From NCBI GenBank assembly GCA_003550725.1, contig PUKZ01000003.1:31124-95123 (forward strand): a DNA stretch of 64,000 nucleotides, in the 5' to 3' direction. This document shows, one piece after another, positions 6,680 to 42,888 of this stretch. The notes under the pieces are model-generated. The model did not search any database and was not told the DNA's origin. It worked only from the letters and a program-made list of their open reading frames with translations. The DNA comes from Bacteroidales bacterium (GTDB lineage: Bacteria; Bacteroidota; Bacteroidia; Bacteroidales; UBA7960). The translations under genes and the position numbers were made by a program. Positions within the stretch are counted from its first letter, which is position 1; the number at the start of each line of letters is the position of its first letter.

Positions 6680-6919
6680 CACCTAATAAACCAGAATATT
6701 TGTTGCTGTTTTATAAAAATTTTACAATAACACTCTTTTACATTCTTACTGATTTTGTAATTAATTAAAAAATCATTTTTTGTATATTTAGGTCAGGTTT
6801 TGAGTTTTATGTAACTTAAAGCTATTTTAATATATGACAACAAACAAAACATTTATTTCTAAATATTTAATCAGTTTTTTCTGGATAAACCTCAATTTTA
6901 ATTTGAAAAATATAAATAT

Positions 6920-7927: not shown

Positions 7928-8059
7928 TTTATTAGTTTTGATGAAATTAAATCAGATTATCAGTTATTTGAAAATTATATTGAATTCAGGTTTATTATTT
8001 TGTAAATTGTCAATATTCGGTTGGTTATTAATCTATAAACTTATAAATAATTATTATTT

Positions 8060-8896
8060 ATGTCAAAAAGCATTAGAAAACCTGCGGTATCAGGGATGTT
8101 TTATCCATCAGGCAAAAACGAGTTATTAAATTTAATTAAGGAAATTGATCGTCAGGAAGAATCAAGATTTGAAACCGTTTTTGCACAGCATAATATTATT
8201 GGTGGCATTGTACCACATGCCGGCTATATGTATTCCGGATACCAGGCTGTTCATTTTTTTAAAGTCTTGCAAAATGCCCGGCAAACTATTGATACAGTAG
8301 TTATTTTAAACCCTAATCATAGTGGTATAGGCCCCGGAGTTGCATTAGATGAAAATTCTTTATGGGCAACACCTTTAGGGCATGCAGAAATAGATGATGA
8401 ATTTTACCGTGCACTTGATATACTCGCCTCATCTATCGCGCATGATAACGAACATTCAGGCGAAGTTATGGTGCCATTTTTACAATATTACCTGGATGAT
8501 TCAAAAAAAATAGCGCCAATAAGCATGTCTGACCAATCATATGAAACTGCTGTTGAAATAGCACGCAAAATCAATATCGCAGTATCAGAAACCGGGAAAA
8601 AGATAGTTATGATTGCCTCAAATGATTTTTCACACTTTGTCGAACCGAGTGAAGGATACAAACTTGACAACCTTGTTTATGAAAAAATAGAAAAACTTGA
8701 CGCCAAAGGTGTTTATGACACTATCAGAAAAAACAATATAAGTGTTTGCGGTTATGGGCCGATTATGGTTATGATTGAATATTGTAAACAAAAACATCCC
8801 GGTGTAAAAACAAAGCTATTGAGAAGAGGTAATTCCGGTGATATATCCCCTTCAACAAGTGTGGTAAACTATATTACTTCTTTATTTTATGAATAA
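8060..8896 (+). CDS. amrB: AmmeMemoRadiSam system protein B (MEMO1 family)
   Basis: 278 aa. IRKPAVSGMFYP and IVPHAGYMYSG at the N-terminus are typical of Memo/AmrB proteins. Confidence 0.8.
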   Translation: MSKSIRKPAVSGMFYPSGKNELLNLIKEIDRQEESRFETVFAQHNIIGGIVPHAGYMYSGYQAVHFFKVLQNARQTIDTVVILNPNHSGIGPGVALDENSLWATPLGHAEIDDEFYRALDILASSIAHDNEHSGEVMVPFLQYYLDDSKKIAPISMSDQSYETAVEIARKINIAVSETGKKIVMIASNDFSHFVEPSEGYKLDNLVYEKIEKLDAKGVYDTIRKNNISVCGYGPIMVMIEYCKQKHPGVKTKLLRRGNSGDISPSTSVVNYITSLFYE

Positions 8897-8972
8897 AAAG
8901 CGGGTTTTAGAATAAAACACCCTTATTATTCAGAGAGTATAAAATAATAATACGCCGGAATAATAAAAGAAT

Positions 8973-10733
8973 ATGAGCTCAAAGATAGAATATCCTGGAA
9001 AAAATTTTTTACCCACATCAAGGCATGAAATGGAAGAGCTTGATTGGGAACAGGCCGATATAATAATTGTAAGTGGCGATGCCTATATTGATCATCCATC
9101 ATTTGGCTCAGCAATACTAGGGCGGTTAGGTGAAAAAATGGGGCTAAAAGTGGCTATATTACCTCAACCTAATTGGCGTGATGATTTACGTGATTTTAAA
9201 AAACTTGGTAAGCCACGTCTTTTTTTTGGGGCAACAGCAGGTAATATGGATTCAATGATAAACCATTATACTGCTCTTAAGAGGCTTCGCTCAAACGATA
9301 ATTATACCCCCGGTGGAAAAGCCGGTTTCAGGCCTGATTATGCTACATCGGTATACACTAAAATACTCAAAAAAATCTACCCCGATACACCTGTAATAAT
9401 CGGTGGTATTGAAGCTTCAATGAGAAGATTAACTCATTACGACTACTGGTCTGATTCTGTTAAACCATCTATATTGTCGGAAAGCGGTGCAGACATGTTG
9501 ATTTACGGCATGGCCGAACAACCATTTATGCAAATAATAAAGCTGCTAAATCGCGGAGTACCATTATCATCATTACAAAATATTTTACAAACTTCTTTTC
9601 TGGTAAAAAACAAAGAAAACCTGCAAACCCTAAAAAATACTGACAACATAACTCTACCTTCTTATGAGCTATGTAAAAAAAGTAAAAAAACTTTTGCAGA
9701 TGCCTTTAAAATAATTGAAGAGTCGTCAAACCTGGCAACCCAGCCAAGGTTATTCCAAAAAACAGGTGAATCTTTTGTTGTAGTCAATCCCCCCTACCCT
9801 GTCGCCAAAGAAAAAGAAATTGATGAATTTTATGATTTGCCTTTCACAAGAATACCTCATCCAAGGTACAAAAGCAAATCGCCAATACCCGCATATGAAA
9901 TGATCAGGCATTCTGTAACGCTTCACCGGGGGTGTTTTGGAGGATGTAGTTTTTGTACCATATCAGCTCACCAGGGCAAATTCATCGCCAGCCGCTCTGA
10001 AAAATCAATATTAGCCGAATTAGAGAAAATCACAAAAATGGAAGACTTTAAAGGTCATATAACAGATCTGGGCGGGCCAACAGCCAATATGTATAAAATG
10101 TCGGGTTTTAATAAAACAGCCTGCATTAAATGCATAAGAGCATCTTGTATATTCCCCGACACCTGTACAAACCTGAATTTTGATCACAACACCTTGATCA
10201 AATTATATAAAAAAGCCTCTTTAATAGAAGGTATAAAAAAAATTACAATAGGAAGCGGAATCCGTTATGATATGTTGGTTAAAAAAAACAAAGAGCAAAA
10301 CAAAAAATTTGCCCTGAACAAATATGCCAGGTTATTAATTAATAATCACGTTTCAGGAAGGCTAAAAGTAGCACCGGAGCATATTTCAGCCAAGGTTTTG
10401 CAACTAATGAGAAAACCTTCCTTTGATTATTATAAAGAATTTGATAATTTATTCAGGAAAATATGCAAAGAAAATAACTTAAGGCAGGAATTGGTGCCTT
10501 ATTTTATCTCAGGACATCCTGGAAGCAGTGAAAATGAAATAAAAAAACTTAATGAGGTTGTAGCCGACTGCAAACTTGACTCACGGCTGGTTCAGGAATT
10601 TACGCCCACTCCAATGACATTGGCAACGACAATATATTACACAGGCATTGATCCTTTTACCGGTAAAAAAATATATACACCTAAAATTAGCCATCTTAAG
10701 CGAAAGCAAAAAAATTATTTTATGACCTCATGA
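8973..10733 (+). CDS. ygiQ: YgiQ family radical SAM protein (UPF0313)
   Basis: 586 aa. FLPTSRHEMEELDWEQADIIIVSGDAYIDHPSFG matches the YgiQ N-terminal domain. The radical SAM cluster motif is CFGGCSFC. Confidence 0.85.
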   Translation: MSSKIEYPGKNFLPTSRHEMEELDWEQADIIIVSGDAYIDHPSFGSAILGRLGEKMGLKVAILPQPNWRDDLRDFKKLGKPRLFFGATAGNMDSMINHYTALKRLRSNDNYTPGGKAGFRPDYATSVYTKILKKIYPDTPVIIGGIEASMRRLTHYDYWSDSVKPSILSESGADMLIYGMAEQPFMQIIKLLNRGVPLSSLQNILQTSFLVKNKENLQTLKNTDNITLPSYELCKKSKKTFADAFKIIEESSNLATQPRLFQKTGESFVVVNPPYPVAKEKEIDEFYDLPFTRIPHPRYKSKSPIPAYEMIRHSVTLHRGCFGGCSFCTISAHQGKFIASRSEKSILAELEKITKMEDFKGHITDLGGPTANMYKMSGFNKTACIKCIRASCIFPDTCTNLNFDHNTLIKLYKKASLIEGIKKITIGSGIRYDMLVKKNKEQNKKFALNKYARLLINNHVSGRLKVAPEHISAKVLQLMRKPSFDYYKEFDNLFRKICKENNLRQELVPYFISGHPGSSENEIKKLNEVVADCKLDSRLVQEFTPTPMTLATTIYYTGIDPFTGKKIYTPKISHLKRKQKNYFMTS

Positions 10734-10856
10734 TACAAAAAATAAAATTTAAACCACCTACTAAAATAACTGTCGACTAAACTATATATATTGATTAATT
10801 TGATTTAAAATAAATAAGCCGGCCACACGAGTTTTATAAATTTCACTTAAATAAAA

Positions 10857-11342
10857 CTATTGCTGCCTGTCTCTCCTTTGCTTGCGGCGCATTTCACGAA
10901 ACAAGTGACGTTTGAAGTCTTTTTCAGCCTCGTATAACAATGCCACTTTTTTGACTGATAAAACATCAAGATATTTTTCGTGGTATTCTCTTCTCAGCTT
11001 TGCCATCTCTTCAATCCTGCGAATTTCAAATTCAGCATATTCGGCAGCCTTCTCTTCAGAAACATCTGATAAAGATTTATCACCATTTTTAATTTCACAA
11101 ACATATTTTTCTCTTATTTCCTGCATCTCCTCATTATACTTATTATAAAGAGGCCAAAACTGCTGAGCTTCTTCACTTGTTAATGAAAGCCGATCAGTTA
11201 TAAAAGCAATCTTCATTGAACGAATATTTTCATGGTGCTCAGAATCGCGAAACTGACCACGCCAGGGCTGAGAAATAGAAGGGTAAACTATTACAACAAG
11301 ACAAAATAAAACTATTAACCTTTTTATTTGTATATTTTTCAT
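10857..11342 (-). CDS. Periplasmic Spy/CpxP-like helical protein (third gene of the ECF sigma module)
   Basis: 161 aa. It has a signal peptide (MKNIQIKRLIVLFCLVVIVYPSISQ) and repeated helical LTxEQ-type segments (LSLTSEEAQQFWPLYNKYNEEMQEIREK). It is on the same strand as the sigma gene and downstream of it. Confidence 0.55.
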   Translation of the reverse strand: MKNIQIKRLIVLFCLVVIVYPSISQPWRGQFRDSEHHENIRSMKIAFITDRLSLTSEEAQQFWPLYNKYNEEMQEIREKYVCEIKNGDKSLSDVSEEKAAEYAEFEIRRIEEMAKLRREYHEKYLDVLSVKKVALLYEAEKDFKRHLFREMRRKQRRDRQQ

Positions 11343-11394
11343 TTCTTCTAAAAATTTATTTAACCTGATTAATGTTTCTGTAATTTATTAATAG

Positions 11395-11916
11395 TTAATC
11401 AAAATAAGCAATATCTTCAGGCGAATACTGATATAAATCCATATAATCCAACAAATATTCGAAATAAGCATCATCTTCCAATTCATCATCCATTGTAAAA
11501 AAATCAAACGATCCTTCAGGATATTCTAAATGTTCAATCTCTTCAGCCGCCAAAATATCATAATATGCTGTTTCATCATAATCTGCAAAATACGAAAAAT
11601 ATGATTCAAAAAGTTCATTATCAGCCTCTGAGTATAAATCGATATCGTTATTATTTGTAAAAAACAAGATTGATATTCCAAAAGATATCAACACTAATAA
11701 TGCTGATGCATAAGCCAGTAGTTTCCTGGGTGAAATGCTTAAAACTCCGGCATAAACTTTTTGCGGCTCACTATTTTTTAAATTTTGTACTTTCTCAGGC
11801 AAACCGGAAAAATAATTACCCGGAACATCGAATGGATTATCTTTTGAAACTTCTGATATATCGGGAGCTATATCATTAAGTTCTTTTTTCAGTATGTCAG
11901 GCTTTTCTTTTTCCAT
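11395..11916 (-). CDS. Single-pass membrane protein with an extremely acidic/aromatic C-terminal tail; possible anti-sigma partner
   Basis: 173 aa with a central TM helix (LLAYASALLVLISFGISILFF). The C-terminal ~85 aa are dominated by D/E/Y/F. It lies immediately downstream of the ECF sigma gene. No zf-HC2 motif is seen, so the anti-sigma role rests on position only. Confidence 0.45.
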   Translation of the reverse strand: MEKEKPDILKKELNDIAPDISEVSKDNPFDVPGNYFSGLPEKVQNLKNSEPQKVYAGVLSISPRKLLAYASALLVLISFGISILFFTNNNDIDLYSEADNELFESYFSYFADYDETAYYDILAAEEIEHLEYPEGSFDFFTMDDELEDDAYFEYLLDYMDLYQYSPEDIAYFD

Positions 11917-11962
11917 TTTAATTATTACATTTTTTTATTAGATTAAAAAAAAGCTCAGATGT

Positions 11963-12508
11963 TTAATCGCTTTTCAAAAATTCTTCTACTTTTTTTGCAG
12001 CAATATGATAAGATGCTTTTAAAGCACCGGTTGATGTATTTAATATTTGTGACATGTCCTCATATTTCATCTCATCAAAATAACGTAAATTAAAAATTAC
12101 CCTTTGTTTCTCGGGCAATTTTAATATGACTTTCTGCAATTTTTTCTGAATTTCGTCGCCTTTAAAAAAGTGGTCTGACTCAATTTTTTCTGACAAATTA
12201 GCTTCAACATCCACCAAAGGTATAAAAAATCTTTTTTGCTTTTTTTTTAGAAATGACAGGGCTTCATTAGTAGCTATTCTGTAGAGCCATGTATATAATT
12301 TCGAATCTCCCCTGAATTTACTGATATTTTGCCAAACTTTAAGGAACACATTTTGTACAACGTCGTTTGAGTCATCATGATCAATTAGAAGTCGCCGCAC
12401 ATGCCAGTAAATATTCTGTTGGTATTTACGCATAATGAGATTAAATGCATAATCCGGATTACCGGACTTAAACATTTTCAGCAATTCTTTGTCATCAAGA
12501 TGATCCAT
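11963..12508 (-). CDS. ECF-type RNA polymerase sigma-70 family factor
   Basis: 181 aa. The region-2-like sequence is DSNDVVQNVFLKVWQNISKFRGDSKLYTWLYRIATNEALSFL. The region-4-like sequence is LPEKQRVIFNLRYFDEMKYEDMSQILNTSTGALKASYHIAAKKV. Confidence 0.85.
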   Translation of the reverse strand: MDHLDDKELLKMFKSGNPDYAFNLIMRKYQQNIYWHVRRLLIDHDDSNDVVQNVFLKVWQNISKFRGDSKLYTWLYRIATNEALSFLKKKQKRFFIPLVDVEANLSEKIESDHFFKGDEIQKKLQKVILKLPEKQRVIFNLRYFDEMKYEDMSQILNTSTGALKASYHIAAKKVEEFLKSD

Positions 12509-12523
12509 ATATTATTTGGCCGT

Positions 12524-12531
12524 CAAAAGTA
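12524..12531 (-). promoter_or_regulatory. Candidate -7 promoter box (TAnnTTTG) for the ECF sigma operon
   Basis: The minus strand reads TACTTTTG, 16 nt upstream of the start at 12508. Confidence 0.35.
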
Positions 12532-12774
12532 ATAGTATAAAACAATTATTTTTATTATTTAAGCCACAACTTGTAATCAGCAATCTGCAATTAGTAACCT
12601 TTTAAATTATAAACTTCGTTTTATGATTGTGATCTTTTATTTATGGTCTAAATTACCTGAAGCAAAAAATGAATAACGGTTTCAAACAACTAAACTGCAG
12701 GGTAGGCTTAAATAGATATTAATTTGGTAATATGACCTTAATAATTCTATTTAACAAATCATTTTTCTTATTAT

Positions 12775-13764
12775 TTATTTCCGTGAAATGACTTTTTGTG
12801 CAGCTTTGACGATATTTTCGGCATCAAGGCCGTATTTAACCATCAACTCATCGGGTTTACCGCTTTCTCCAAAAACATCTTTTATACCTATCATTTCCAG
12901 GGGTTTAGCACAGTATTTTGTCAATAATTGTGCAATGCTTTCACCCATTCCGCCATTTATCTGATGTTCTTCGGCAGTAATACCGCAGCCGGTTTTTTTT
13001 ATTGATCCTAAAATTGTATCAACATCAAGGGGTTTAATTGTATGAATATTTATTATTTCGGCTCTTATACCTTTCTCAAAGAGAATTTTTCCTGCCTCCA
13101 GGGCTTGCCAGACCATATGCCCGGTAGCAAATACTGATATATCTTTGCCTTCATTAAGTATATCAGCCTTCCCTATAATAAATTCCTGATCTTCACTGGT
13201 AAAATTAGGCACTTTTGGTCGGCCAAATCGCAGATAAACAGGCCCTTTATAATCAGCTATTGCAATAGTAGCAGCTTTAGTCTGATTAAAATCACATGGG
13301 CTTATTACTGTCATATTGGGTAACATCTTCATCATACCAAAATCTTCAAGCATTTGGTGAGTAGCTCCGTCTTCTCCAAGAGTTATACCTGCATGAGATG
13401 CACAAATCTTAACATTTTTATTTGAATATGCTATAGATTGCCGTATCTGGTCATAAACCCTACCTGTTGAAAAGTTAGCAAATGTACCGGTAAATGGAAT
13501 TTTTCCTCCTATAGTTAAACCTGCAGCTATACCCATCATGTTGGCTTCTGCAATACCGGTTTGATAAAACCTTTCGGGAAATTGTTTTTGAAACTTGTCC
13601 ATCTTCAATGAACCGGTCAGATCGGAACATAGTGCAACAATTTTTGAATTTTTATTGCCAAGCTCAAACAACCCCTCACCAAAACCAGACCTTGTATCTT
13701 TCTTTTCTTTATATGAATATTTTTTCATCTTAAGTTTATTGTTTATTTCATTCTCTATTGTCAT
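12775..13764 (-). CDS. Transketolase, C-terminal (pyrimidine-binding) subunit of a split enzyme
   Basis: 329 aa with RSGFGEGLFELG, FYQTGIAEANMMGIAAGL and GATHQMLEDFGMMKMLPNM. The true start may be the internal MKKYSYKEKK (13 codons in). Confidence 0.9.
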   Translation of the reverse strand: MTIENEINNKLKMKKYSYKEKKDTRSGFGEGLFELGNKNSKIVALCSDLTGSLKMDKFQKQFPERFYQTGIAEANMMGIAAGLTIGGKIPFTGTFANFSTGRVYDQIRQSIAYSNKNVKICASHAGITLGEDGATHQMLEDFGMMKMLPNMTVISPCDFNQTKAATIAIADYKGPVYLRFGRPKVPNFTSEDQEFIIGKADILNEGKDISVFATGHMVWQALEAGKILFEKGIRAEIINIHTIKPLDVDTILGSIKKTGCGITAEEHQINGGMGESIAQLLTKYCAKPLEMIGIKDVFGESGKPDELMVKYGLDAENIVKAAQKVISRK

Positions 13765-13895
13765 ATAATCGAATATTTAATTCAGTACTTAAAAACCGGC
13801 TGCGATTTTTCTATATCATTTAAATCGGGGCATATACAATTTATATATTCAACTCAACAGTTGATTGGTTTGAGTCAAAATGCTTGATTTTGAAA

Positions 13896-14741
13896 TCAAT
13901 AATCGCCGAGTGTTTCTTCAAAATTGGATATAGCTTTATTAAATTGCTCTTCATTTGGTGGTTTGCCATGCCATTCGTGAGTGCCCATCATAAAATCGAC
14001 TCCATAACCCATGTCAGTATTCATAATAATTACAACAGGTTTTTTTTGACCGGTTTTTTCTATGGCTTTAGGTATTATCTTAACAATATCCTCCATATCA
14101 TTGCCATTCATTTCCAATACAGACCATCCAAATGCTTTCCATTTGGCATGAAGATCACCAAGTGGCATCACTTCGCAGCATGGCCCGTCAATTTGTTGCC
14201 CATTATAATCAATTATGCCTATAATATTATCAACTTCCCTGCCTGCACCAAACATAGCAGCTTCCCATATCTGCCCCTCTTGCTGCTCACCATCACCCAT
14301 AAGGCAATAAACTAAATGATTGTCATTGTTTAATTTTTTAGATAAAGCAGCTCCCAAAGCAACGCTTAATCCCTGTCCCAGTGAGCCGGAAGCCACCCTG
14401 ACGCCGGGTAAGCCCTCTTCTGTTGCCGGATGCCCCTGGAGACGAGTGTTGAGTTTGCGAAAAGTTGACAGCTCTTTTACAGGAAAATAACCAGAGCGAG
14501 CCAAAACACTATACCAGGCAGCAGATAAATGACCGTTGGAAAGAAAAAATAAATCTTCCCCAAAACCATCCATAGAAAAACCACCGGGATCATGTTTTAA
14601 AATTTTAAAATAAAGAGCAGTAAAAATGTCAGCACATCCTAATGCTCCTCCGGGATGACCCGACTTGGCATCATAAATCATACGCAAAATATCCCGGCGT
14701 ACCTGCGTAGCAACTTGCTTCAATTCATCAATTTCAGACAT
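13896..14741 (-). CDS. Transketolase, N-terminal (TPP-binding) subunit of a split enzyme
   Basis: 281 aa with SGHPGGALGCADIFTALYF, GSLGQGLSVALG and MGDGEQQEGQIWEA (GDG TPP motif). Confidence 0.9.
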   Translation of the reverse strand: MSEIDELKQVATQVRRDILRMIYDAKSGHPGGALGCADIFTALYFKILKHDPGGFSMDGFGEDLFFLSNGHLSAAWYSVLARSGYFPVKELSTFRKLNTRLQGHPATEEGLPGVRVASGSLGQGLSVALGAALSKKLNNDNHLVYCLMGDGEQQEGQIWEAAMFGAGREVDNIIGIIDYNGQQIDGPCCEVMPLGDLHAKWKAFGWSVLEMNGNDMEDIVKIIPKAIEKTGQKKPVVIIMNTDMGYGVDFMMGTHEWHGKPPNEEQFNKAISNFEETLGDY

Positions 14742-14762
14742 ATATTAATAATTTTAAAAAAA

Positions 14763-14770
14763 CAAAATTA
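14763..14770 (-). promoter_or_regulatory. Candidate -7 promoter box for the split transketolase genes
   Basis: The minus strand reads TAATTTTG, 22 nt upstream of the start at 14741. Confidence 0.35.
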
Positions 14771-14935
14771 TAAAAAATCACTTTTGACATAAATTGAATT
14801 GTTATTTATTTTCTAACATTCACAATTTCAAACTTTGTAAAATATTTTTTTTTGAATAAACAAATAATATCAAACTTGCATGTTTGGAGGTTTATTTGCT
14901 AATTATTTCAGAAGGTAGCTGGTTTTTTTTAAGAA

Positions 14936-15502
14936 TCATTTATTTTCATCCTCCAGCTCCATTTTTATCAAAGCAAAGACAGCATAATTAATAATATCAT
15001 ATAGGTTTGCGTCTATACCTTCTGATGTTGATGTTTTACCTTTGTTGTTCTCGATTTGTTTAATCCTTAGTAATTTCATCAAAATAATATCTGCAAGTGA
15101 TGAAATGCGCATTTCCCGCCATGCTTCACTGTAGTCATGATTTTTATTTTGCATCAGTTCAAATGCCTTCTCATAGTATTTATCATAAAGATCCACAGCC
15201 TCTTCGACTGTTAGGTCAGGTTTATCACTATGACCCTTCTCAATCTGGATAATTGCCATAATACAGTAATTAACAATACCAATAAACTCAGGCTTTATAC
15301 CTTCATCAATTTTTTGTTTACCTTTGTCCTGCAAAGAGCGTATTCTTTGAGCTTTTATGTATATTTGATCTGTCAATGAAGGAGAGCGTAAAACCCGCCA
15401 TGCACTGCCGTAATCTTTCATTTTGGCAAGAAAAACTTTCATGCAAAGTTCCTTTATCAATGGAAACTGTTCTTCAGTATTTGATCGCGATACTTTATTC
15501 AT
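14936..15502 (-). CDS. DUF1599 domain-containing protein
   Basis: 188 aa with two internal repeats (KDYGSAWRVLRSPSLTDQIYIKAQRIRSLQ and HDYSEAWREMRISSLADIILMKLLRIKQIE). Its divergent position next to folP is, as I recall, common in Bacteroidota. Confidence 0.65.
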   Translation of the reverse strand: MNKVSRSNTEEQFPLIKELCMKVFLAKMKDYGSAWRVLRSPSLTDQIYIKAQRIRSLQDKGKQKIDEGIKPEFIGIVNYCIMAIIQIEKGHSDKPDLTVEEAVDLYDKYYEKAFELMQNKNHDYSEAWREMRISSLADIILMKLLRIKQIENNKGKTSTSEGIDANLYDIINYAVFALIKMELEDENK

Positions 15503-15506
15503 TTTT

Positions 15507-15514
15507 TATATTTG
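15507..15514 (+). promoter_or_regulatory. Candidate -7 promoter box for folP
   Basis: TATATTTG lies 18 nt upstream of the ATG at 15533. Confidence 0.4.
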
Positions 15515-15532
15515 TAATTTGAAAAAAATAAG

Positions 15533-16393
15533 ATGGCGAAAGATAATTATTTTAATACAAAACTAACTATAAATTGCCTGGGTAAAGTTATAAATTTATC
15601 TTCACCTGTTGTAATGGGAATTATTAATCTTTCCCCTGATTCTTTTTTTGACGGCGGCAAATACAAAAGCAACTGGGATGTTATAAAACAAGCTGAAAAA
15701 CTTTTATATGAGGGTGCAACTTTTATTGACCTGGGAGCTGTATCAACACGACCGGGCGCTAAAATAATTTCGCCGGGCGAAGAGCAAAAAAGGCTTTTAC
15801 CTGCTTTGGAAGCTATATTGAAATATTTTCCTTCAGCACTAATTTCAGTTGACACATATAACTCCTCTACGGCAAGCACAGCAATCGAATATGGAGCTCA
15901 CATGATTAACGATATCTCTGCAGGCAACTTTGACCCAAATATGTTTAAGACTATTGCAAATCTTAATGTTCCTTATATAATAATGCACATAAAAGGAACA
16001 CCCGAAACCATGCAAAAAAACCCTGTCTATGACGGCTTGCTTGAAGAGGTAATCACTTATTTTTCAGAAAAAATTGAAAAATTACATCAACATGGGGTCA
16101 TAGATATAATTATAGATCCGGGGTTTGGTTTCGGCAAAAATTTAGATCATAATTATGAATTATTAAGCAAGCTGGAATATTTGAAAATCTTAGAATTACC
16201 AATCATGGCAGGAGTATCAAGAAAATCAATGATAAATAAAGTTCTTGACATTAAACCCGATGAAGCCCTGAACGGAACCACTGTTATTAACACTATAGCA
16301 TTAACAAAAGGAGTTGATATACTGAGAGTTCATGATGTAAAACAAGCTATGGAAGCAATTAGTCTTGTTAAAAGATACAGGGAGATATTATAA
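15533..16393 (+). CDS. folP: Dihydropteroate synthase
   Basis: 286 aa with VMGIINLSPDSFFDGG, IDLGAVSTRPGA, DPGFGFGK and ILRVHDV, the classic pterin-binding-domain motifs. Confidence 0.9.
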   Translation: MAKDNYFNTKLTINCLGKVINLSSPVVMGIINLSPDSFFDGGKYKSNWDVIKQAEKLLYEGATFIDLGAVSTRPGAKIISPGEEQKRLLPALEAILKYFPSALISVDTYNSSTASTAIEYGAHMINDISAGNFDPNMFKTIANLNVPYIIMHIKGTPETMQKNPVYDGLLEEVITYFSEKIEKLHQHGVIDIIIDPGFGFGKNLDHNYELLSKLEYLKILELPIMAGVSRKSMINKVLDIKPDEALNGTTVINTIALTKGVDILRVHDVKQAMEAISLVKRYREIL

Positions 16394-16577
16394 TTTTGTT
16401 ATTTGTACCTTTGGAAAAAATATTGGGTTTTATTATCAATATTTTATATTTTTCTGAGTGGTATATTACTCATATTCATCAGAAAAACCAAATAATTGTA
16501 AAAGATAATGAAAACCGGCAACAAAGATTATTTCATTTGTATAAAATGTATTTAAAGTATAGATATTTAAATTTTTA

Positions 16578-16760
16578 ACGACAGGTAATCCCGGAAAACA
16601 GGGGTTTCGGTGCCGCTCAACGGGTACGGGGTTTTACGTAAATTGACTCATAATGAATCTATAAAACAAGAATTGTATCGGGACATAATTATTAGATCTG
16701 TCATTGTTATACCTCACCCGTTACTATTATGTCGTAAGATCGCTGACGCTAAGTTCATAT
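16578..16760 (+). ncRNA. Candidate structured RNA: a GC-rich island in the folP-cdaA spacer, class unknown
   Basis: Within a 507-nt AT-rich spacer there is a locally G/C-rich stretch (cccggaaaacaggggtttcggtgccgctcaacgggtacggggttttacg ... cacccgttac...gtcgtaagatcgctgacgc). Possible long-range pairing is AACGGGT (16619-16625) with ACCCGTT (16716-16722). The strand is not established and no family was recognised. Confidence 0.2.
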
Positions 16761-16900
16761 TCTTTTATGAACCTATAGTTAGGGTTATGTGTAATTTTTG
16801 ATTTAAATTGTTAAGAAATTATTTAAGTTCTTTTTTAACTTTTTTGAATTAATATGTTTTTTCGGTTTTTAATATTATTCACACAACAAACAAATAGATC

Positions 16901-17695
16901 ATGATTATTGGTTCATTACTACCATTTTTAGATATAAGGTTTCTGGATATTTTGGACATCTTGCTTGTTGCTTTTTTACTTTATCGTCTTTATTATTTGA
17001 TTCGGGGTACGGGAGCTTTATACATATTTCTGGGCATTTTATCAATATATTTATTATGGTGGGTAGTTCGCATCTTTGAGATGGAGCTTCTCACTGAAAT
17101 ACTTGGTCAGTTTATGAGTGTAGGGGTTCTGGCTCTCATTATTGTATTCCAGCCCGAAATACGCAAGTTTCTTCTTATGATAGGAACAAGATCCATTATT
17201 AATAAGGGATCTAAAAGCATTTTTAAAAAATTCTGGCAATTTGGCGAGCAGTTCTCCTTTAACTTAACACCAATTGTAAACGCTTGTGAAACATTTTCGC
17301 AAAAAAAAACCGGTGCACTTATAGTATTCACAAAAGAAAATAATTTAGAATATTATATCGAAACAGGTGAGATTCTCGATGCAAAAATCTCTGAAGATCT
17401 TCTTGAGAACATTTTTTACCGAAACAGCCCGTTACATGACGGTGCTGTTATAATAACAAATAACAAAATAGCGGCTGCACGTTGTGTACTGCCGGTATCA
17501 GATAACCCTTCATTTCCTACCAACCTGGGGCTAAGACACCGGGCAGCTCTTGGCATAACAGAACATTCTGATGCAATAGCCGTTGTTGTAAGTGAACAAA
17601 CCGGACGGATATCGTGGTTTAAAGATGGAAATATGAAGAGAAATATTAAACCTGTGCAATTGAAAGAATTTTTAGCTAAAGAATTTATGTCATAA
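16901..17695 (+). CDS. cdaA: Diadenylate cyclase (membrane-anchored, CdaA/DacA type)
   Basis: 264 aa. It has three N-terminal TM helices followed by a DAC domain with the motifs PLHDGAVII and GLRHRAALGITE...VVVSEQTG. Confidence 0.9.
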   Translation: MIIGSLLPFLDIRFLDILDILLVAFLLYRLYYLIRGTGALYIFLGILSIYLLWWVVRIFEMELLTEILGQFMSVGVLALIIVFQPEIRKFLLMIGTRSIINKGSKSIFKKFWQFGEQFSFNLTPIVNACETFSQKKTGALIVFTKENNLEYYIETGEILDAKISEDLLENIFYRNSPLHDGAVIITNNKIAAARCVLPVSDNPSFPTNLGLRHRAALGITEHSDAIAVVVSEQTGRISWFKDGNMKRNIKPVQLKEFLAKEFMS

Positions 17696-17710
17696 ATCAA
17701 ATTACTACTC

Positions 17711-18562
17711 ATGCAATTAATAGCCGACAGTGGAAGTACAAAAACTGACTGGGCAATACTGAATAACCACATCATTGAAAAACAATTTCAAACTGCCGGC
17801 ATAAACCCTTATTTTATGACGGGCAAAGATATTTATGATGAATTACATAGTGTGTTTATCAATAATTTCGACCCTCAATCAATAAAAAAAGTTATTTTTT
17901 ATGGTGCTGGTTGTTCATCACAAAAAAAAGCAGCCAAAATCAAAAATTCTATAAAACAAATATTACCTTTTTCAAAAATTTCAGTAAACCATGATATACT
18001 TGGTGCGGCAAGAGCTCTTCTTGGAAACAAGCCCGGGATAGCATGCATTTTGGGTACAGGTTCAAACTCTTGCCTGTACGACGGAAAAAATATTATCGAA
18101 AACCTGTTTTCACTCGGGTATATGTTTGGTGATGAAGGTAGTGGGGCACACCTGGGAAAAACATTTATCAAAGAGCATCTTAAAAAACAAACACCTGACG
18201 AATTAAGTGAAGCTTTTACTAACAAATATAATTTGTCTGATGAAGAAATTCTCACAAATATTTATCAGAAACCCAATCCAAATAAATTTCTGGCATCATT
18301 CACGCATTTTTTAAAAGAAAAAATACAACATTCTTATATTAAAAATATGATAGAATATTGTTTTGATGAATTTATTAATGAACAGGTTTCAAAATATTCA
18401 AATTATAAGCTATATACTACTTGTTGTGTAGGTTCAATAGCATACCATTTTAAGGATATATTAGTCCTATCCCTTAAAAAACATAACATTACTCCCGGGA
18501 AAATAATCAACTCACCTATGGAAGATTTGATCAAATATCATAGCAAAGAGCATAATATATAG
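17711..18562 (+). CDS. BadF/BadG/BcrA/BcrD-type ATPase, N-acetylglucosamine-kinase-like
   Basis: 283 aa with the ASKHA-fold motifs LIADSGSTKTDW, ILGTGSNS and GDEGSGAHLG. Confidence 0.7.
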   Translation: MQLIADSGSTKTDWAILNNHIIEKQFQTAGINPYFMTGKDIYDELHSVFINNFDPQSIKKVIFYGAGCSSQKKAAKIKNSIKQILPFSKISVNHDILGAARALLGNKPGIACILGTGSNSCLYDGKNIIENLFSLGYMFGDEGSGAHLGKTFIKEHLKKQTPDELSEAFTNKYNLSDEEILTNIYQKPNPNKFLASFTHFLKEKIQHSYIKNMIEYCFDEFINEQVSKYSNYKLYTTCCVGSIAYHFKDILVLSLKKHNITPGKIINSPMEDLIKYHSKEHNI

Positions 18563-21955: not shown

Positions 21956-22519
21956 TTAATTCCTGACAATTTCAATTTCACCGTTATCTTGTATTCTTAT
22001 AATCGTAGAAGGTCTTGGCCTGCTAATAACAAACCTGTCGCTTTTAACAATATAATCAACAGAATTTTTAATTTCATCAGATACCCTGCTATAAGATAAT
22101 GGTGTTGAATCACCTGAAATATTTGCTGATGTTGAAGTTATTGGTTTTCCGAAACTTTTGAGCAACTCAATGCAAAATTGATTTTTGGGAATCCTGACAG
22201 CAATAGTACCATCAGGTGCAATAACATCTTTAGCAAGATTTCGTCCCTTATTATATATAATGGTTAAAGGCTCTTTTATATTGTTTATTAAGTCAATAGC
22301 AACCTCCGGAACATATTTGACATATTTTTTAAGTTGTTCTGTATCTAAAACAAGTATAATTAAAGATTTATAAGGTATCCTTACCTTTATTTTATAAATT
22401 TTGCTTACGGCAATATTATCCGTAGCATCACATCCTATCCCCCATACCGTATCTGTAGGGTAAAGAATGGTGCCTCCAGAATTCAAAACCTCAACCGCTT
22501 TTTTTACTTCCTGATCCAT
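21956..22519 (-). CDS. tsaC: L-threonylcarbamoyladenylate synthase (YrdC/TsaC/Sua5 family)
   Basis: 187 aa with GGTILYPTDTVWGIGCDA and ITSTSANISG. Confidence 0.85.
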   Translation of the reverse strand: MDQEVKKAVEVLNSGGTILYPTDTVWGIGCDATDNIAVSKIYKIKVRIPYKSLIILVLDTEQLKKYVKYVPEVAIDLINNIKEPLTIIYNKGRNLAKDVIAPDGTIAVRIPKNQFCIELLKSFGKPITSTSANISGDSTPLSYSRVSDEIKNSVDYIVKSDRFVISRPRPSTIIRIQDNGEIEIVRN

Positions 22520-25423: not shown

Positions 25424-25897
25424 ATGACCAAATACCTTTTCCATCGAGCTGTTTTATTTTTGTCTTTATTAGCTTTTTTTGTCTCTTGCGACAGAAATAT
25501 GGTTTTTGAAAAAAATAAAAAAATACCATAAATGAAATGGCATTATAAAGACAAAATTACATTTGAAGCAGAAATAAATGACACATCCAATTTACATAAT
25601 ATTCACATCAATATACGTAACAGTGTTGATTATAAATATATGAATTTTTATATGTTTCTCGATACGAAGTTACCTGATGGAACTGTTGTGCGCGACACAT
25701 TAGAGTGCCTTTTAGCTGACAGCCATGGCAAATGGTTGGGAGATGGATACGGAAAAATCCGAACCAATCAGTTTTTGATGAGAGAAAATGTATGGTTTCC
25801 CGAAAAAGGCAATTATACTTTCAGCTTCAAGCAAGCTATGCGTGAAGAAGAACTTGAGGGAATATCCGATATAGGAATACGCATTGAAAGAAATTAA
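25424..25897 (+). pseudogene. gldH: Gliding motility lipoprotein GldH, interrupted by an in-frame TAA (25529-25531) between the signal peptide and the mature domain
   Basis: ATG 25424 opens MTKYLFHRAVLFLSLLAFFVSCDRNMVFEKNKKIP, followed by TAA. ATG 25532 follows in the same frame and opens the 121-aa track ORF MKWHYKDKITFEAEI...LEGISDIGIRIERN, which reads as GldH. The conserved neighbourhood holB-PSP1-gldH-PBP1A supports the call. Confidence 0.7.
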
Positions 25898-29386: not shown

Positions 29387-29422
29387 ATTTTATTATAGTA
29401 CAGGAAATTATATAAAAATAAT

Positions 29423-32212: not shown

Positions 32213-34096
32213 TTAACGAGCCACTTGCACTCGCTTGGTTATGATACTTTCTTTGGTATGTATTTGAACAAAGTAAATACCCTGATGCAAATTACTAACA
32301 TTGATTTCTGAGCTTAATGCATCAACTGAAATCTCTTTTACCATTTGTCCGCTGACATTTATCAGCCTGATTTGTTTTATCAATTCATTTGATTCAACTG
32401 TAAGCCGGTTGCGTGCGGGATTGGGAAATATTACCATATCAATGGCATCATGTTTTTCAACAGAAGTAACATCATTAAAGTTAGCAACAATTTCAACATC
32501 ACCGGCCGGCATAGTTACAGTAGCTGTTTCCGATTCTGGGTCATCAATATGCTCTGTATCGCCCGACCAGTTTACAAACTCATAGTTTTCATTTGCTTCT
32601 GCAGAAATTGTCACTTCTTCACCAAAATAATATTCACCTTCACCGTCAACACTACCACCTTCTTCTGGGTCTGCTGAAATATTAAGACTATATAATATCG
32701 GTTCCATTATTACATTAACAGTTATATCATCATCAACATCAACACTTCCTTCATAATCAAGATGATATTCTGCTTCTACAAGGTAATCATATTCTCCGGG
32801 GATAACTATAAACTCGTAGTCGCCCGCTTGGTTAGTCATATCACCTAAAGTAATGACGGCATTATCGATTACGTAGCCATATTCATTTTCCACCTCGAAA
32901 GTAACTGTATACTCTTCGCCGGATTCAAGTTCAATTTCTACTGTTGTATCTTCAGTTATTTCAATATCTCCTGATTGAGTAAGATAATCTTCTAATGAAA
33001 CGCTCCATTCATAAGTACCTTCAAATACTTCATCAAAAACTATTATACCGTCTTCATCGGTTTCGCCTTCGTGGTCACCCAGTTCAACCCAGGCTCCTTC
33101 AAGGGGATCTTCGGTTGTTTCGCAAGTCACGATAAAAGTAACTTCATAAGCCTCTTCAAGCACTATATTTATTGTCATATCATCATCAACAGTAACTTCA
33201 TCTACAACGGTTTTATATCCGTCTTTTTCTACCTTATATTGATAATCACCCCCCGGTATATTGTTGAAAGAATAATCACCCGGACTGTTTTTAAAAACAT
33301 CGAATGTTACAATTGCATCAGTTATTTCATTACCATCATCGTCAAAAACATCAAAAGTGACTTCATGAAAGTCGGCCTGAAGATGAACGATATTAGCCTG
33401 AAATATTTCTTTGGAAGGTACATCCTGAACAAAAGCTATCACACTCATATTCTCTTCCTCCCAGTTTTGATCCAGGGTAAAACTTAAATCAACCACTTCA
33501 ACATCATTTGATGAAAAGTCGAGTGAAGTACCAAACTGATCAGGCGCCATAAGACGAAGCGCATCTTTCACATAGTTCTGGTTTTGCCAGTTATAAGGGA
33601 TATCTGTTTCAGTAACAGCAAAATGTAAAACAAGGTCATCAGCATCATAATCGTCTGAAACTTCTGTTATCTCAATACTTGCATCCCAGTCTAAACCTCC
33701 TGTGTTTTCAAAATAAATAGCAACAGTAAATGGAGAAGGAACATCAATTCTTTGATTATAGTAATTTAAATATACCGGATAAAGACTTTGGTTTGTACTT
33801 CCTCCCGCATGTTCCAGAATACCATCAATACGGGTATTAGGATAACCGGAAACCCCATAATAGCTGTTCCTGGCATTGGAATACACATTAGCAAAAGCAT
33901 CTCCATTATGATTTTTAATGATTGCTACTTCATGGCCATTTTCTATCAAATCATCGGCTCCCATTGCAGCACCAACACAAAACGGACACCAGGTCCCGGT
34001 TCCTATTTCAAAAACGACTTTTTGCCTTGAAACAGGCTCACCATAGGCTGTTAAGCCAAAAAAAATCACAATTAAACTAAGTATCGCTTTTTTCAT
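32213..34096 (-). CDS. T9SS cargo: an N-terminal WCxxC thioredoxin-like (Omp28-related-like) domain, three beta-sandwich repeats, a Listeria-Bacteroides-type repeat and a T9SS CTD
   Basis: 627 aa with a signal peptide, EIGTGTWCPFCVGAAMGADDL, and three CarboxypepD_reg-like ~70-aa repeats (e.g. HEVTFDVFDDDGNEITDAIVTFD...GGDYQYKVEKDGY). Further along are EGGSVDGEGEYYFGEEVTISAEANENYEFVNWSGD and the CTD FPNPARNRLTVESN...GIYFVQIHTKESIITKRVQVAR. The protein is strongly acidic. Confidence 0.7.
   Translation of the reverse strand: MKKAILSLIVIFFGLTAYGEPVSRQKVVFEIGTGTWCPFCVGAAMGADDLIENGHEVAIIKNHNGDAFANVYSNARNSYYGVSGYPNTRIDGILEHAGGSTNQSLYPVYLNYYNQRIDVPSPFTVAIYFENTGGLDWDASIEITEVSDDYDADDLVLHFAVTETDIPYNWQNQNYVKDALRLMAPDQFGTSLDFSSNDVEVVDLSFTLDQNWEEENMSVIAFVQDVPSKEIFQANIVHLQADFHEVTFDVFDDDGNEITDAIVTFDVFKNSPGDYSFNNIPGGDYQYKVEKDGYKTVVDEVTVDDDMTINIVLEEAYEVTFIVTCETTEDPLEGAWVELGDHEGETDEDGIIVFDEVFEGTYEWSVSLEDYLTQSGDIEITEDTTVEIELESGEEYTVTFEVENEYGYVIDNAVITLGDMTNQAGDYEFIVIPGEYDYLVEAEYHLDYEGSVDVDDDITVNVIMEPILYSLNISADPEEGGSVDGEGEYYFGEEVTISAEANENYEFVNWSGDTEHIDDPESETATVTMPAGDVEIVANFNDVTSVEKHDAIDMVIFPNPARNRLTVESNELIKQIRLINVSGQMVKEISVDALSSEINVSNLHQGIYFVQIHTKESIITKRVQVAR
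32298..32676. repeat. Duplicated block R1, copy a (partner 34261-34639)
   Basis: My hand alignment is collinear with no indels (constant offset 1963), with roughly 25 mismatches over ~379 nt. The block covers the Listeria-Bacteroides repeat and most of the CTD. Confidence 0.85.
33209..33752. repeat. Duplicated block R2, copy a (partner 34722-35264)
   Basis: The hand alignment is collinear at constant offset 1513, with about nine in ten bases identical by eye. It covers the first beta-sandwich repeat and the distal half of the N-terminal domain. Identity falls off sharply beyond 33752/35264. Confidence 0.85.
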
Positions 34097-34175: not shown

Positions 34176-35624
34176 TTAGTTTACTATCTGAATAATTTCG
34201 TTTATTATACTTTCTTTAGTAAATATTTGCATGATGTAAGCCCCGTTTTTTAAGTTACTCACATTGATTTCTGAGCTTGAAGCATCAACTGAAATCTCCT
34301 TTACCATTTGTCCGCTGGCATTTATAAGCCTTATTTGTTTTATCAATTCATTTGATTCAACTGTAAGCTTGTTGCGTGCGGGATTGGGAAATATTACCAT
34401 ATCAATGGCATCATGTTTTTCAACATAAGTAACATCATTAAAGTTAGCAACGATCTCAACATCACCGGCCGGCATGGTTACAGTTGCTGTTTCCGATTCA
34501 GGATCATCAATATGCTCTGTATTACCTGACCAGTTTACAAACTCATAGTTTTCATTTGCTTCTGCAGAAATTGTCACTTCTTCACCAAAATAATATTCAC
34601 CTTCGCCGTAAACACTTCCTCCTTCTTCAGGGTATGCTGATAAACCAAGGCTAAAGAATTCCAACTCTTCCATAACAACCTCCAAAGTAACTTCATCATC
34701 AACAACAACCTCATCTTCAATGGTTTTATACCCGTCTTTTTCTACCTTATATTGATAATTACCCCCTGGTATATTGTTGAAGGAATAATCACCCGGATTG
34801 TTTTTAAAAACATCGAATGTTACAATTGCATCAATTATTTCATTACCATCATTGTCAAAAACATCAAAAGTGACAGTATGGAAGTCGGCCTGAAGATGAA
34901 CAATATTAGCCTGAAATATTTCTTTGGTTTGTTTATCCTGAACAAAAGCTATCACACTCATATTCTCTTGCTTCCAGTCTTCATCCAGGGTAAAACTTAA
35001 ATCAACCACTTCTATATCATTTGATGAAAAGTCGAGAGAAGTACCAAACTGATCTGGTGCCATGATGCGAAGCACATCTTTCACATGCGTTTGATTAAAC
35101 CAGTTATGAGGAATATCAGTTTCAGTAACGGCAAAATGTAAAACAAGGTCATCAGCATCATAGTCGTCTGAAACTTCTGTTATCTCAATACTTGCATCCC
35201 AGTTTAAGTCTCCCGTGTTTTCAAAATAAATGGCAACAGTATGTGGAGAGGGAATGTCAATTCTCTTATCGTAATATTGCTTATAGGCCACATATAAACT
35301 GCTGTCCGGACTTCCCGAAGAATGTGTAAGCACGCCATCAAACTTAGCTGTTGGATAGCCCAAAATTCCATAATAATCTATACGGTGTGTATGGTAAGCA
35401 TTAGTAAATTCATCGTTAAAGTGATATTTTAAAACAGCCACATTATGCTGGTTTTCGATCAAATCTGCAGCTCCCATTGCAGCACCCGGACAGTTGTAAC
35501 ACCATACATCGGTAACTATTTCTACAACCACATTTTGACGTGGTATACCCCTACCATAAAGAGAATTAAGCCCAAGTAAAATCAAAATAAAAAAAAATAT
35601 TCCTTTTTTCCTAATTATTAACAT
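34176..35624 (-). CDS. T9SS cargo, shorter tandem paralog of 32213-34096 (WCxxC domain, one beta-sandwich repeat, Listeria-Bacteroides-type repeat, CTD)
   Basis: 482 aa with EIVTDVWCYNCPGAAMGAADL. Large blocks are nearly identical to the neighbouring gene at both the protein and DNA level. The CTD is FPNPARNKLTVESN...GAYIMQIFTKESIINEIIQIVN. Confidence 0.7.
   Translation of the reverse strand: MLIIRKKGIFFFILILLGLNSLYGRGIPRQNVVVEIVTDVWCYNCPGAAMGAADLIENQHNVAVLKYHFNDEFTNAYHTHRIDYYGILGYPTAKFDGVLTHSSGSPDSSLYVAYKQYYDKRIDIPSPHTVAIYFENTGDLNWDASIEITEVSDDYDADDLVLHFAVTETDIPHNWFNQTHVKDVLRIMAPDQFGTSLDFSSNDIEVVDLSFTLDEDWKQENMSVIAFVQDKQTKEIFQANIVHLQADFHTVTFDVFDNDGNEIIDAIVTFDVFKNNPGDYSFNNIPGGNYQYKVEKDGYKTIEDEVVVDDEVTLEVVMEELEFFSLGLSAYPEEGGSVYGEGEYYFGEEVTISAEANENYEFVNWSGNTEHIDDPESETATVTMPAGDVEIVANFNDVTYVEKHDAIDMVIFPNPARNKLTVESNELIKQIRLINASGQMVKEISVDASSSEINVSNLKNGAYIMQIFTKESIINEIIQIVN
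34261..34639. repeat. Duplicated block R1, copy b (partner 32298-32676)
   Basis: See copy a. Confidence 0.85.
34722..35264. repeat. Duplicated block R2, copy b (partner 33209-33752)
   Basis: See copy a. Confidence 0.85.
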
Positions 35625-40272: not shown

Positions 40273-42888
40273 ATGTTATTAAAAAAAATATTAAAAGAAC
40301 GCATTCTTATACTTGATGGTGCCATGGGCTCGCTCATTCAGCACAATGAGCCTAAAGAGTCAGACTACAGGGGCAGTAAACTGAAGGATCATCCAATAAA
40401 ACTAAAAGGAAATCACGAGTTGCTCAACTTGCATTGTAAAGATTTGGTTTATGATATTCATTCTTCTTATTTGAAAGCCGGGGCAGATATTATAACGACC
40501 AATACATTTAATGCAAATTCGTTGTCACAAAGTAATTATAAAACAGAGCATCTATGCTACGATATAAATCTTAATGCAAGTCTAATTGCCGTTAAAGCTG
40601 CAAAAAAATATTCGACCGGTATCAAGCCCAGGTTTGTTGCCGGGTGTGTTGGTCCAACATCCAAATCATTATCAATGTCATTGGTTTCAAAAGTATCTGA
40701 AGAGCAAGGCTTATCTTTTGATAAGCTTGCAGATGCATATTCTGAACAAATAAGCGGACTTATTGACGGTGGGGTTGATATACTGATGATAGAAACGGTT
40801 TTTGACACCCTTAATACTAAAGCAGCTATTTATGCTGCAAAAAAAATATTACACGACAGGGCCAAAAGCATTCCTTTAATGATATCAGCAACAATTGCAG
40901 GAAAATCGGGGCGTTTACTTTCGGGGCAAACCATATCTGCCTTCTACCACTCTGTAAAACATGCTAATCTATTATCTATAGGTTTAAATTGCAGCTTCGG
41001 TCCGGAAGAGTTGAAACCATTTATAAAAGATCTTCAGGAAGAAGCTGAATGTTTTATTTCTTTTCATCCAAATGCCGGAATGCCTGACCATGAAGGTAGT
41101 TACACACAAACACCGGGGCAGATGGCAAAGAATATTGAAAATATTTTGCAAAACATTAAAATAAATATAATTGGAGGATGTTGCGGCACAACACCCGAAC
41201 ATATAAATACTTTATCGAATGTTGTAACAAAATTCAGCCCTAAGCCACCAAATATAAAAAAACATTCAACAGTTTTAGCAGGTCTTGAACCTTTAAAAAC
41301 AAATGATAGCAACGAGCTCATTTATGTTGGCGAAAAAACAAATGTATCCGGATCACGAAAATTTGCGAAATTAATAAAATCGCAAAACTACCGTGAAGCT
41401 GTTATTGTTGCAGAACAACAAATTGAAGAAGGAGCAAGAATCCTTGATATTTGCATGGATACAGCAGGAGTTGATTCTGCATCAGCAATAAAAGATTTTT
41501 TGACACATTTAAACGCTAATCCGCATCTTTCGAAGCATCCTGTAATGATTGATTCTTCGGATTTTCAAACAATCAAAACTGCCTTAAAATGTATTCAGGG
41601 CAAACCCATTGTCAACAGCATTTCACTAAAGAACGGGGAGCAAGATTTTATTAATAAAGCCACCGAAATAAAAAACATGGGTGCATCAATTGTAGTTATG
41701 TTATTTGATGAAAAGGGTCAGGCAGATACAACCAAAAGAAGGAAAGAGATAGTTTCAAGAAGCTACGAATTACTAACCAATAAAGCAGGCCTGCCTGCCG
41801 AAGACATTATATTCGACCCAAACTTAATGGCTTTAGGAATAGATGTTAATGATTCCGAAAATCAAGCAATAAGCTTTTTAGAAACCTGCAAGTATATTAA
41901 GTCTAATTACCCGCAAACAAATATTACAGGTGGGGTAAGTAATTTATCTTATGCTTTCAGAGGGGCAAACCAATCGCGCAGAGCTATACATCATGTTTTT
42001 TTAAAAAAGGCACTTGAAGCAGGCTTTAAATTTGCCATAGTAAATCCCTCTATGATCAATAATAATGACATACCAGATGAGTTATTAAAATTAGCCGGCG
42101 ACGTGGTATTTGAAAAAAGACCTGCAGCTATAGAGCATTTATTAAACTACATTAAGCCTGAGTCAAGTAAAAAAACAAAAGAAAAAAAGAGCTCGTGGCG
42201 TGAACAAAATATCAAAAATCGTTTAAAATATGCACTAATTAATGGTATAGGTGATTATCTTAAAAAAGACGTAGAATCTGCTATTAAAAAGCTTGATAAC
42301 CCTTACAAAATTATTGAAGAGATTCTTATGCCTGCTATGGATGAAATTAGCAACAGGTATGACGAAGGAACCCTGTTTTTGCCACAGGTAATACGCAGTG
42401 CCACAATATTTCAAAAAGCTGTCGAATATATACATCCTTATCTAAGCTCTAAAAGCAGAAATACAAATGATTCAGAGCAGGTAGTTGTCCTGGCCACGGT
42501 TGAGGGAGACGTTCATGATATCGGTAAAAACATTGGATCAATTGTTTTTGAATGCAATGGTTTCAAAGTAATTGACCTTGGTGTTATGGTTCCGGCTCAG
42601 AAAATTATTGAAACAGCAAAGAAAAATGATGCCGCCATGATTGGCTTAAGCGGCCTTATCACCCCATCACTGATGGAAATGGCAAGGGTAGCTGAATTAA
42701 TGGAAAAAAATAAATTAAAAATCCCTCTGCTTATTGGAGGAGCAACAACTTCAGAAAAGCATACCAAAGAAAATATATCTGTCAAATATAATGGACCGGT
42801 AATACATATAAAAGATGCTTCAAAAATTGGTGCAATTTTAAAAAAATATCATGAAAACAATGCCATTAATAATGTTTGCAGAAAATAA
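40273..42888 (+). CDS. metH: Cobalamin-dependent methionine synthase, short form lacking the C-terminal AdoMet reactivation domain
   Basis: 871 aa. It has an Hcy-binding domain (ILDGAMGS...GGCCGTTPEHI), a pterin-binding domain, the B12 cap and a B12-binding domain with the DxHxxG motif (EGDVHDIGKNIG). The protein ends right after the Rossmann-like B12 domain. Confidence 0.9.
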   Translation: MLLKKILKERILILDGAMGSLIQHNEPKESDYRGSKLKDHPIKLKGNHELLNLHCKDLVYDIHSSYLKAGADIITTNTFNANSLSQSNYKTEHLCYDINLNASLIAVKAAKKYSTGIKPRFVAGCVGPTSKSLSMSLVSKVSEEQGLSFDKLADAYSEQISGLIDGGVDILMIETVFDTLNTKAAIYAAKKILHDRAKSIPLMISATIAGKSGRLLSGQTISAFYHSVKHANLLSIGLNCSFGPEELKPFIKDLQEEAECFISFHPNAGMPDHEGSYTQTPGQMAKNIENILQNIKINIIGGCCGTTPEHINTLSNVVTKFSPKPPNIKKHSTVLAGLEPLKTNDSNELIYVGEKTNVSGSRKFAKLIKSQNYREAVIVAEQQIEEGARILDICMDTAGVDSASAIKDFLTHLNANPHLSKHPVMIDSSDFQTIKTALKCIQGKPIVNSISLKNGEQDFINKATEIKNMGASIVVMLFDEKGQADTTKRRKEIVSRSYELLTNKAGLPAEDIIFDPNLMALGIDVNDSENQAISFLETCKYIKSNYPQTNITGGVSNLSYAFRGANQSRRAIHHVFLKKALEAGFKFAIVNPSMINNNDIPDELLKLAGDVVFEKRPAAIEHLLNYIKPESSKKTKEKKSSWREQNIKNRLKYALINGIGDYLKKDVESAIKKLDNPYKIIEEILMPAMDEISNRYDEGTLFLPQVIRSATIFQKAVEYIHPYLSSKSRNTNDSEQVVVLATVEGDVHDIGKNIGSIVFECNGFKVIDLGVMVPAQKIIETAKKNDAAMIGLSGLITPSLMEMARVAELMEKNKLKIPLLIGGATTSEKHTKENISVKYNGPVIHIKDASKIGAILKKYHENNAINNVCRK

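Follow-up and report, generated by a model that had tools for sequence, protein, structure and literature searches.

Introduction

GldH, a small component of the gliding and type IX secretion (T9SS) apparatus, is a lipoprotein (PMC9127263). In Flavobacterium psychrophilum, phage-resistant isolates have been found to carry mostly nonsense or frameshift mutations in gld/T9SS genes, with one such mutation in gldH (PMC9804748). The gene considered here lies in a window of 64,000 nucleotides, with a G+C content of 34.5%, and in this window an in-frame TAA followed directly by an ATG separates the part of gldH that encodes the lipoprotein signal peptide from the part that encodes the mature domain. 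A sequence-only reading of the window had described this interruption and had left four options for it, namely a nonsense mutation, a consensus or assembly error, readthrough of the stop codon, or termination at the TAA coupled with reinitiation at the ATG. According to the interpretation argued for below, the gene would be an ordinary gldH, with the small lipoprotein of the gliding/type IX secretion machinery as its product, and its host an uncultured Bacteroidales population of soda lakes (ML635J-40 group).

The gldH Reading Frame and Its Interruption

When coordinates and translations were re-read, the split of gldH by an in-frame TAA with an ATG right behind it was found exactly as it had been described (Table 1). 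The segment upstream of the stop harbors a hydrophobic core and a lipobox-like FVSC, both features of a signal peptide, and lipidation is predicted from them; the Cys residue of FVSC is invariant in an alignment of 21 sequences. Across the junction the sequence reads ...ATACCATAAATGAAATGG..., and the peptide that flanks the stop is KKIP-X-MKWH.

That the ORF downstream of the stop represents the mature part of GldH had been proposed from its translation, and the family models bear this out. On its own, the 121-aa product scores 117.7 bits against TIGR03511 (GldH_lipo; curated cut-off 78.7) and 137.2 bits against PF14109 (cut-off 27). When the two parts are fused, with X in place of the stop, the resulting 157-aa sequence reaches 137.9 bits with TIGR03511, in an ungapped alignment of residues 10–155 with profile positions 7–154, and 145.2 bits with PF14109. 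Since the match to the family model runs ungapped across the stop, this is one gldH gene cut by a single stop codon rather than two ORFs placed next to each other by chance. A single uninterrupted ORF of about 155–160 codons is absent from the window; it is present in four sibling assemblies (157 aa, with GAA at codon 36), and the uninterrupted gldH genes of all close relatives encode 158 aa.

An in-frame TAA would be of no consequence if TAA were a sense codon in this organism. For such an altered genetic code, an extremely improbable explanation, only the in-frame stop itself speaks. TAA is the main and ordinary stop of the window, where it terminates 38 of the 56 long ORFs at positions that give full-length family matches, and the altered code was rejected on this ground. 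The genes of the window are otherwise uninterrupted, and the presence of GAA at codon 36 in the sibling assemblies also argues against it.

The compared loci L005, L006, and L008–L010 retain the arrangement holB, PSP1-domain gene, gldH, while locus L007 has the PSP1-domain gene and gldH without a holB match; a PBP1A gene lies 3′ of gldH in L005 and L006. The Bacteroidetes −7 promoter motif TAnnTTTG occurs 117 times in the window, with 106 matches expected, which is not above chance, and it is absent from the plus strand between 25249 and 25423. Elsewhere in the window, PorP, GldK, GldL, GldM, and GldN are intact and all five exceed their NCBIfam cut-offs; a T9SS sorting domain is present in three proteins. 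This agrees with the earlier description of porP-gldKLMN and three T9SS cargo genes as intact.

Several other features of the window were recorded in passing. GldL matches a model of 247 positions only over residues 12–247 and has a long C-terminal extension, and GldN, whose model match begins only at residue 117, has an N-terminal extension. Two tandem paralogous T9SS cargo genes encode proteins with an Omp28-like N-terminal region and a Por_Secre_tail domain; their matches to the “Omp28-related selenoprotein” model stay under its cut-off, and the end of the corresponding PWFF locus (L001) matches the second cargo copy at 89% identity. The methionine synthase gene is preceded by a gap of 1 kb that contains a SAM riboswitch. 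Two overlapping ORFs that had been considered as a possible frameshift were rejected as such, as they correspond to BacA plus TruB.

Table 1. Positions in the window of the gldH segments, of the substitutions private to the window or to the sister MAG PWFF, and of other features (changes are given as other assemblies > assembly concerned).
Feature	Position	Strand	Change	Details
gldH	25424..25897	+		157 codons plus terminal stop, broken at codon 36
gldH codons 1–35	25424..25528	+		start ATG 25424; translation MTKYLFHRAVLFLSLLAFFVSCDRNMVFEKNKKIP; includes lipobox-like FVSC and start of mature part
gldH Cys22 codon	25487..25489	+		Cys of FVSC
gldH codon 36, in-frame TAA (E36*)	25529..25531	+	G>T at 25529, GAA (Glu36) > TAA	T private to the contig; consensus base in 4 other assemblies
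gldH codons 37–157 (mature domain) and TAA stop	25532..25897	+		121-aa ORF from ATG 25532, same frame
PBP1A Val153>Gly	26420	+	T>G	T in 4 other assemblies; relatives have Ile or Val
rpsB start codon	29423..29425	+	G>T at 29425, ATG>ATT	ATG in 6 other assemblies
T9SS cargo gene Phe14>Leu	35583	-	G>C on + strand	in signal peptide; G in 3 others
Orn/DAP/Arg decarboxylase Tyr252>Asp	37831	+	T>G	directly after GGG; T in 3 others
porP Phe300	56380	+	T>C	synonymous; T in 3 other assemblies
CCA-adding enzyme E397K (PWFF)	20691		C>T	private to PWFF
tsaC S129* (PWFF)	22134	-	G>C, TCA>TGA	private to PWFF; L001 6710–6712 = window 22133–22135
MetH T711P (PWFF)	42403		A>C	private to PWFF
Tandem T9SS cargo genes	32213–34096 and 34176–35624	-		
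SAM riboswitch RF00162	39781–39880	+		78.7 bits
Methionine synthase gene	40273–42888			
BacA plus TruB	46386–47893			overlapping ORFs
PorP, GldK, GldL, GldM, GldN	55481–61824			
GldL	57936–59015	+		359 aa
GldN	60721–61824	+		367 aa

Codon 36 in Sibling Assemblies and Relatives

A protein search located the exact 121-aa GldH product on a single contig, which is from NCBI and measures 132,689 b; the 90% cluster of this product has one other member, a 157-aa protein (P0121) that is the same throughout except for Glu in place of the stop. P0121 is encoded on PWFF01000149.1 of the NCBI assembly GCA_003553765.1, in JGI 3300000557, and in the Logan assemblies SRR490134 and SRR490150. All four read AATAAAAAAATACCAGAAATGAAATGG at this site, where the window is the same but for T instead of G at 25529, and over tens of kb these sibling assemblies are 99.96–100% identical to the window.

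The sequence-only reading had proposed to look at this codon in the gldH loci of the closest relatives, as was done here. The two nearest named relatives, the soda-lake sediment MAGs Bacteroidales bacterium CSSed165cm_83 and T3Sed10_157R1, have AAA and CAA, the same population has GAA, and a stop occurs nowhere else among these. At codon 36, E, Q, or K is found in eight homologues (158 aa, one of 169 aa) that share 66–74% identity with the fused sequence; the position is variable and is also occupied by G, S, and other residues. The adjacent column, that of Met37, holds Met in all eight of these relatives and in the DNA of L005 and L006. When genome contigs were scanned with intact GldH, only relatives at ≤81% identity were recovered, not the species itself, and an exact 39-mer (with N at 25529) gave 0 matches in a metagenome contig collection that lacks the JGI 3300000557 contig (L002) carrying that 39-mer.

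Given GAA and a conserved Met in siblings and relatives, the stop is to be regarded as the result of a G>T change of GAA, and the ATG at 25532, judged by its place in the alignment, is the ordinary, ancestral codon for Met37 and not a new start. As Met37 is normally encoded there, the TAA-ATG junction arose as a coincidental by-product of one base change, and not by design.

This bears directly on the idea that the stop is real and tolerated, in which case the cell would obtain full-length GldH by reading through the UAA, or else the mature part by termination followed by reinitiation at the adjacent AUG. The in-frame ATG directly after the TAA would suit such a mechanism, and the variability of codon 36 indicates that any residue inserted by readthrough would probably be tolerated. 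The stop is not conserved, however, as the same population has GAA and the relatives have AAA or CAA, and the codon at which reinitiation would take place is the ancestral Met37 codon, so that the idea appears very improbable. Furthermore, as GldH is a lipoprotein (PMC9127263), a reinitiated 121-aa product devoid of the signal peptide and of Cys22 could presumably be neither exported nor lipidated. With regard to an RNA structure that might stimulate readthrough, the 100 nt downstream of the stop fold no better than shuffled sequences (z = +0.91), and a search for a suppressor tRNA revealed no tRNA gene within the window.

Private Substitutions in the Window and in Other Assemblies

The window was compared with 27 loci from seven other assemblies, namely PWFF, JGI 3300000557, Logan SRR490134, SRR490150, SRR13089369, and SRR9330141, and ENA ERZ27266011. 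Together they span positions 1–58315 of the window, and 43.2 kb of this is represented in two or more of them. Identity to the window ranges from 99.91 to 100%, and a single homopolymer base, in JGI only, accounts for the indels. In these 43.2 kb, the window has six positions at which its base is found in none of the others (Table 1), or approximately 1.4 per 10 kb. These six changes comprise one nonsense change, one start loss, three missense changes, and one synonymous change, and five of the six are transversions.

The start loss affects rpsB and is severe. An in-frame TAA three codons upstream of the lost ATG, at 29414–29416, leaves no upstream start available, and use of the next ATG, at 29477, would drop 18 conserved residues. 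The 308-aa rpsB product matches TIGR01011, and the NCBI product on the contig of the window has 276 aa.

The distribution of the alleles was determined by exact look-up in a collection of approximately 15 billion proteins, which comprises NCBI, JGI/IMG, Logan, and ENA data. The alleles of the window, i.e., the 121-aa GldH, PBP1A G153, decarboxylase D252, cargo L14, and the 276-aa RpsB, are present in NCBI only, all on the one 132,689-b contig. Both NCBI and JGI/IMG contain the full set of consensus alleles; in Logan, only the cargo allele is missing. The longest contig that bears the consensus alleles measures 132,634 b, 55 b less than the contig of the window, and it probably derives from the same reads.

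The population is strikingly clonal; a contig of Logan SRR490150 (L011) matches 17.9 kb of the window (positions 1–17927) at 100% identity. The same consensus alleles are borne by runs with much later accession numbers (SRR9330141, SRR13089369, and ERZ27266011).

Private singletons also occur in other assemblies of the set. The sister MAG PWFF (T1Sed10_53), assembled with MEGAHIT at 8.8x coverage, has three of them, and ENA ERZ27266011 has two. Between the Logan and JGI assemblies, the only differences are a mismatch at 58310, 6 b from the end of the Logan SRR490134 contig, and the homopolymer insertion in JGI. One of the three changes in PWFF creates a stop codon in tsaC, the gene for L-threonylcarbamoyladenylate synthase, which encodes 128 aa in that assembly vs. 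an intact protein of 187 aa in the window and in four other assemblies.

Taking all assemblies together, nine of the 11 private singletons are transversions. The probability of this is 0.0014 if transversions make up about one third of natural variation, as was assumed here, and 0.23 under uniform random change. Synonymous changes represent two of the 10 genic private changes, for 21% expected at random. In these genes, 4.9% of random coding substitutions are nonsense, and finding one nonsense change among six has a probability of 0.26. The private changes look like noise because so many of them are transversions and so few are synonymous.

Origin of the Stop Codon

What would be expected of a base error, that is, an allele private to one assembly and accompanied there by other private, random-like coding changes, is found in the window. 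A private T that is contradicted by every other assembly of the population most likely reflects a base error, and if real it would be no more than a rare strain-level variant. We lean to error because the T is private to this contig, four assemblies have GAA, the allele occurs nowhere else among 15 billion proteins, and the same contig has a private ATG>ATT change in rpsB. The probability that the TAA at codon 36 is an assembly or base error is put at roughly 0.65 from these sequence comparisons. The G>T at 25529 would then be a base error in the assembly, or a minority read variant taken up by the assembler, rather than a trait of the organism. That the base is private, that the sibling genes are intact, and that there are other private changes with such a spectrum are matters of observation, and they suggest a technical cause for the substitution. 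The organism itself almost certainly encodes an intact gldH. Among the four options of the sequence-only reading, error, which is favored, and a nonsense allele thus survive, while readthrough and TAA-ATG reinitiation fall away as designed features.

Some considerations run counter to an error. Assemblers normally follow the majority allele, and if the window comes from MAG B1Sed10_61, a likely sister MAG and probable member of the species that has 59x coverage, a random error reaching the contig would be unusual, as contig errors are uncommon at such depth. Very recent real mutations can likewise show near-neutral coding effects, and an oxidative-damage mutator acting in vivo would likewise yield G>T and T>G changes.

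The same coverage argument favors a real, strain-level nonsense allele. A sub-lineage with gldH E36* would have lost GldH, and hence gliding and type IX secretion, and the other private changes would be real as well. This is possible but doubtful. The base stands in the deposited record, and the rest of the ORF is without decay, as expected of a very recent event, its other 156 codons being identical to those of the intact P0121. Phage is known to select for loss of function in gld genes, gldH included, in F. psychrophilum (PMC9804748), and selection for phage resistance is a possible cause of the E36* allele. On the other hand, none of the six alleles of the window occurs in any other assembly, nor in the JGI, Logan, and ENA data of the 15-billion-protein collection, and a contig of nearly equal size bears all the consensus alleles. 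The same lineage would also lack the ATG of the essential rpsB, and the spectrum is dominated by transversions, with one synonymous change in six. The intact state of GldK, GldL, GldM, GldN, PorP, and the cargo genes is also unfavorable to a real allele. With respect to the hallmarks of a pseudogene, the allele was not found to be reproduced in independent data of the lineage, in which four other assemblies read G, and no extra stops, frameshifts, or relaxed constraint were found in the rest of gldH.

Were the TAA real, which is rather unlikely, a sub-lineage of this near-clonal haloalkaliphilic Bacteroidales, with gldH knocked out by G>T and an AUU start on rpsB, would represent a natural gliding- and T9SS-deficient variant, e.g., a phage-escape variant, living alongside the wild type in soda-lake sediment. 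Such a sub-lineage might have the spectrum of an oxidative-damage mutator, with G>T and T>G changes.

Significance

As a standard member of a known family, the gldH gene described here carries little biological weight. The matter is of more interest with respect to data quality. Approximately 1.4 private substitutions per 10 kb would extrapolate to some 420–460 in a genome of 3.0–3.3 Mb, including about 20 false nonsense pseudogenes. With about 20 spurious stops to be reckoned with by this extrapolation, claims of gene loss or recoding that are based on single MAGs of this set need sibling assemblies or reads as a check. If the allele were real, it would show in the field the kind of gld loss-of-function variant that phage-selection experiments have already yielded (PMC9804748).

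Comparison with Known Systems

The gene resembles that of F. johnsoniae GldH (Fjoh_0890; TIGR03511/PF14109) in its length of approximately 157 aa, its lipoprotein signal peptide, its invariant Cys, and its full-length match to the family model. As in the F. johnsoniae system, gldH comes after holB and a PSP1-domain gene, in a genome with gldK, gldL, gldM, gldN, and porP. It differs in that codon 36 is TAA in the contig of the window, the siblings being intact, and in that the host is an uncultured haloalkaliphilic Bacteroidales of the ML635J-40 group and not a Flavobacterium.

With termination-reinitiation, or translational coupling, the locus shares an AUG immediately 3′ of a stop in the same mRNA. 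In translationally coupled genes, the stop/start junction is retained among relatives, and each of the two genes yields a functional product. At the present locus, in contrast, the junction results from one private base change inside one conserved domain, and its ATG encodes a Met within the protein.

As in the phage-resistant mutants of F. psychrophilum, a single premature stop affects a gliding gene while the other gld genes are intact (PMC9804748). Those mutants, in contrast, were clones isolated and resequenced under phage selection (PMC9804748), whereas the allele of the window is seen in one metagenome-assembled contig only, against four assemblies, and together with the loss of the rpsB start codon. 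There is also a likeness to the substitution errors of metagenome assemblies that make apparent pseudogenes: the changes are isolated, private to one assembly, present at about 1.4 per 10 kb, random-looking in their coding effects, and rich in transversions, and the nonsense codon in the tsaC gene of PWFF follows the same pattern.
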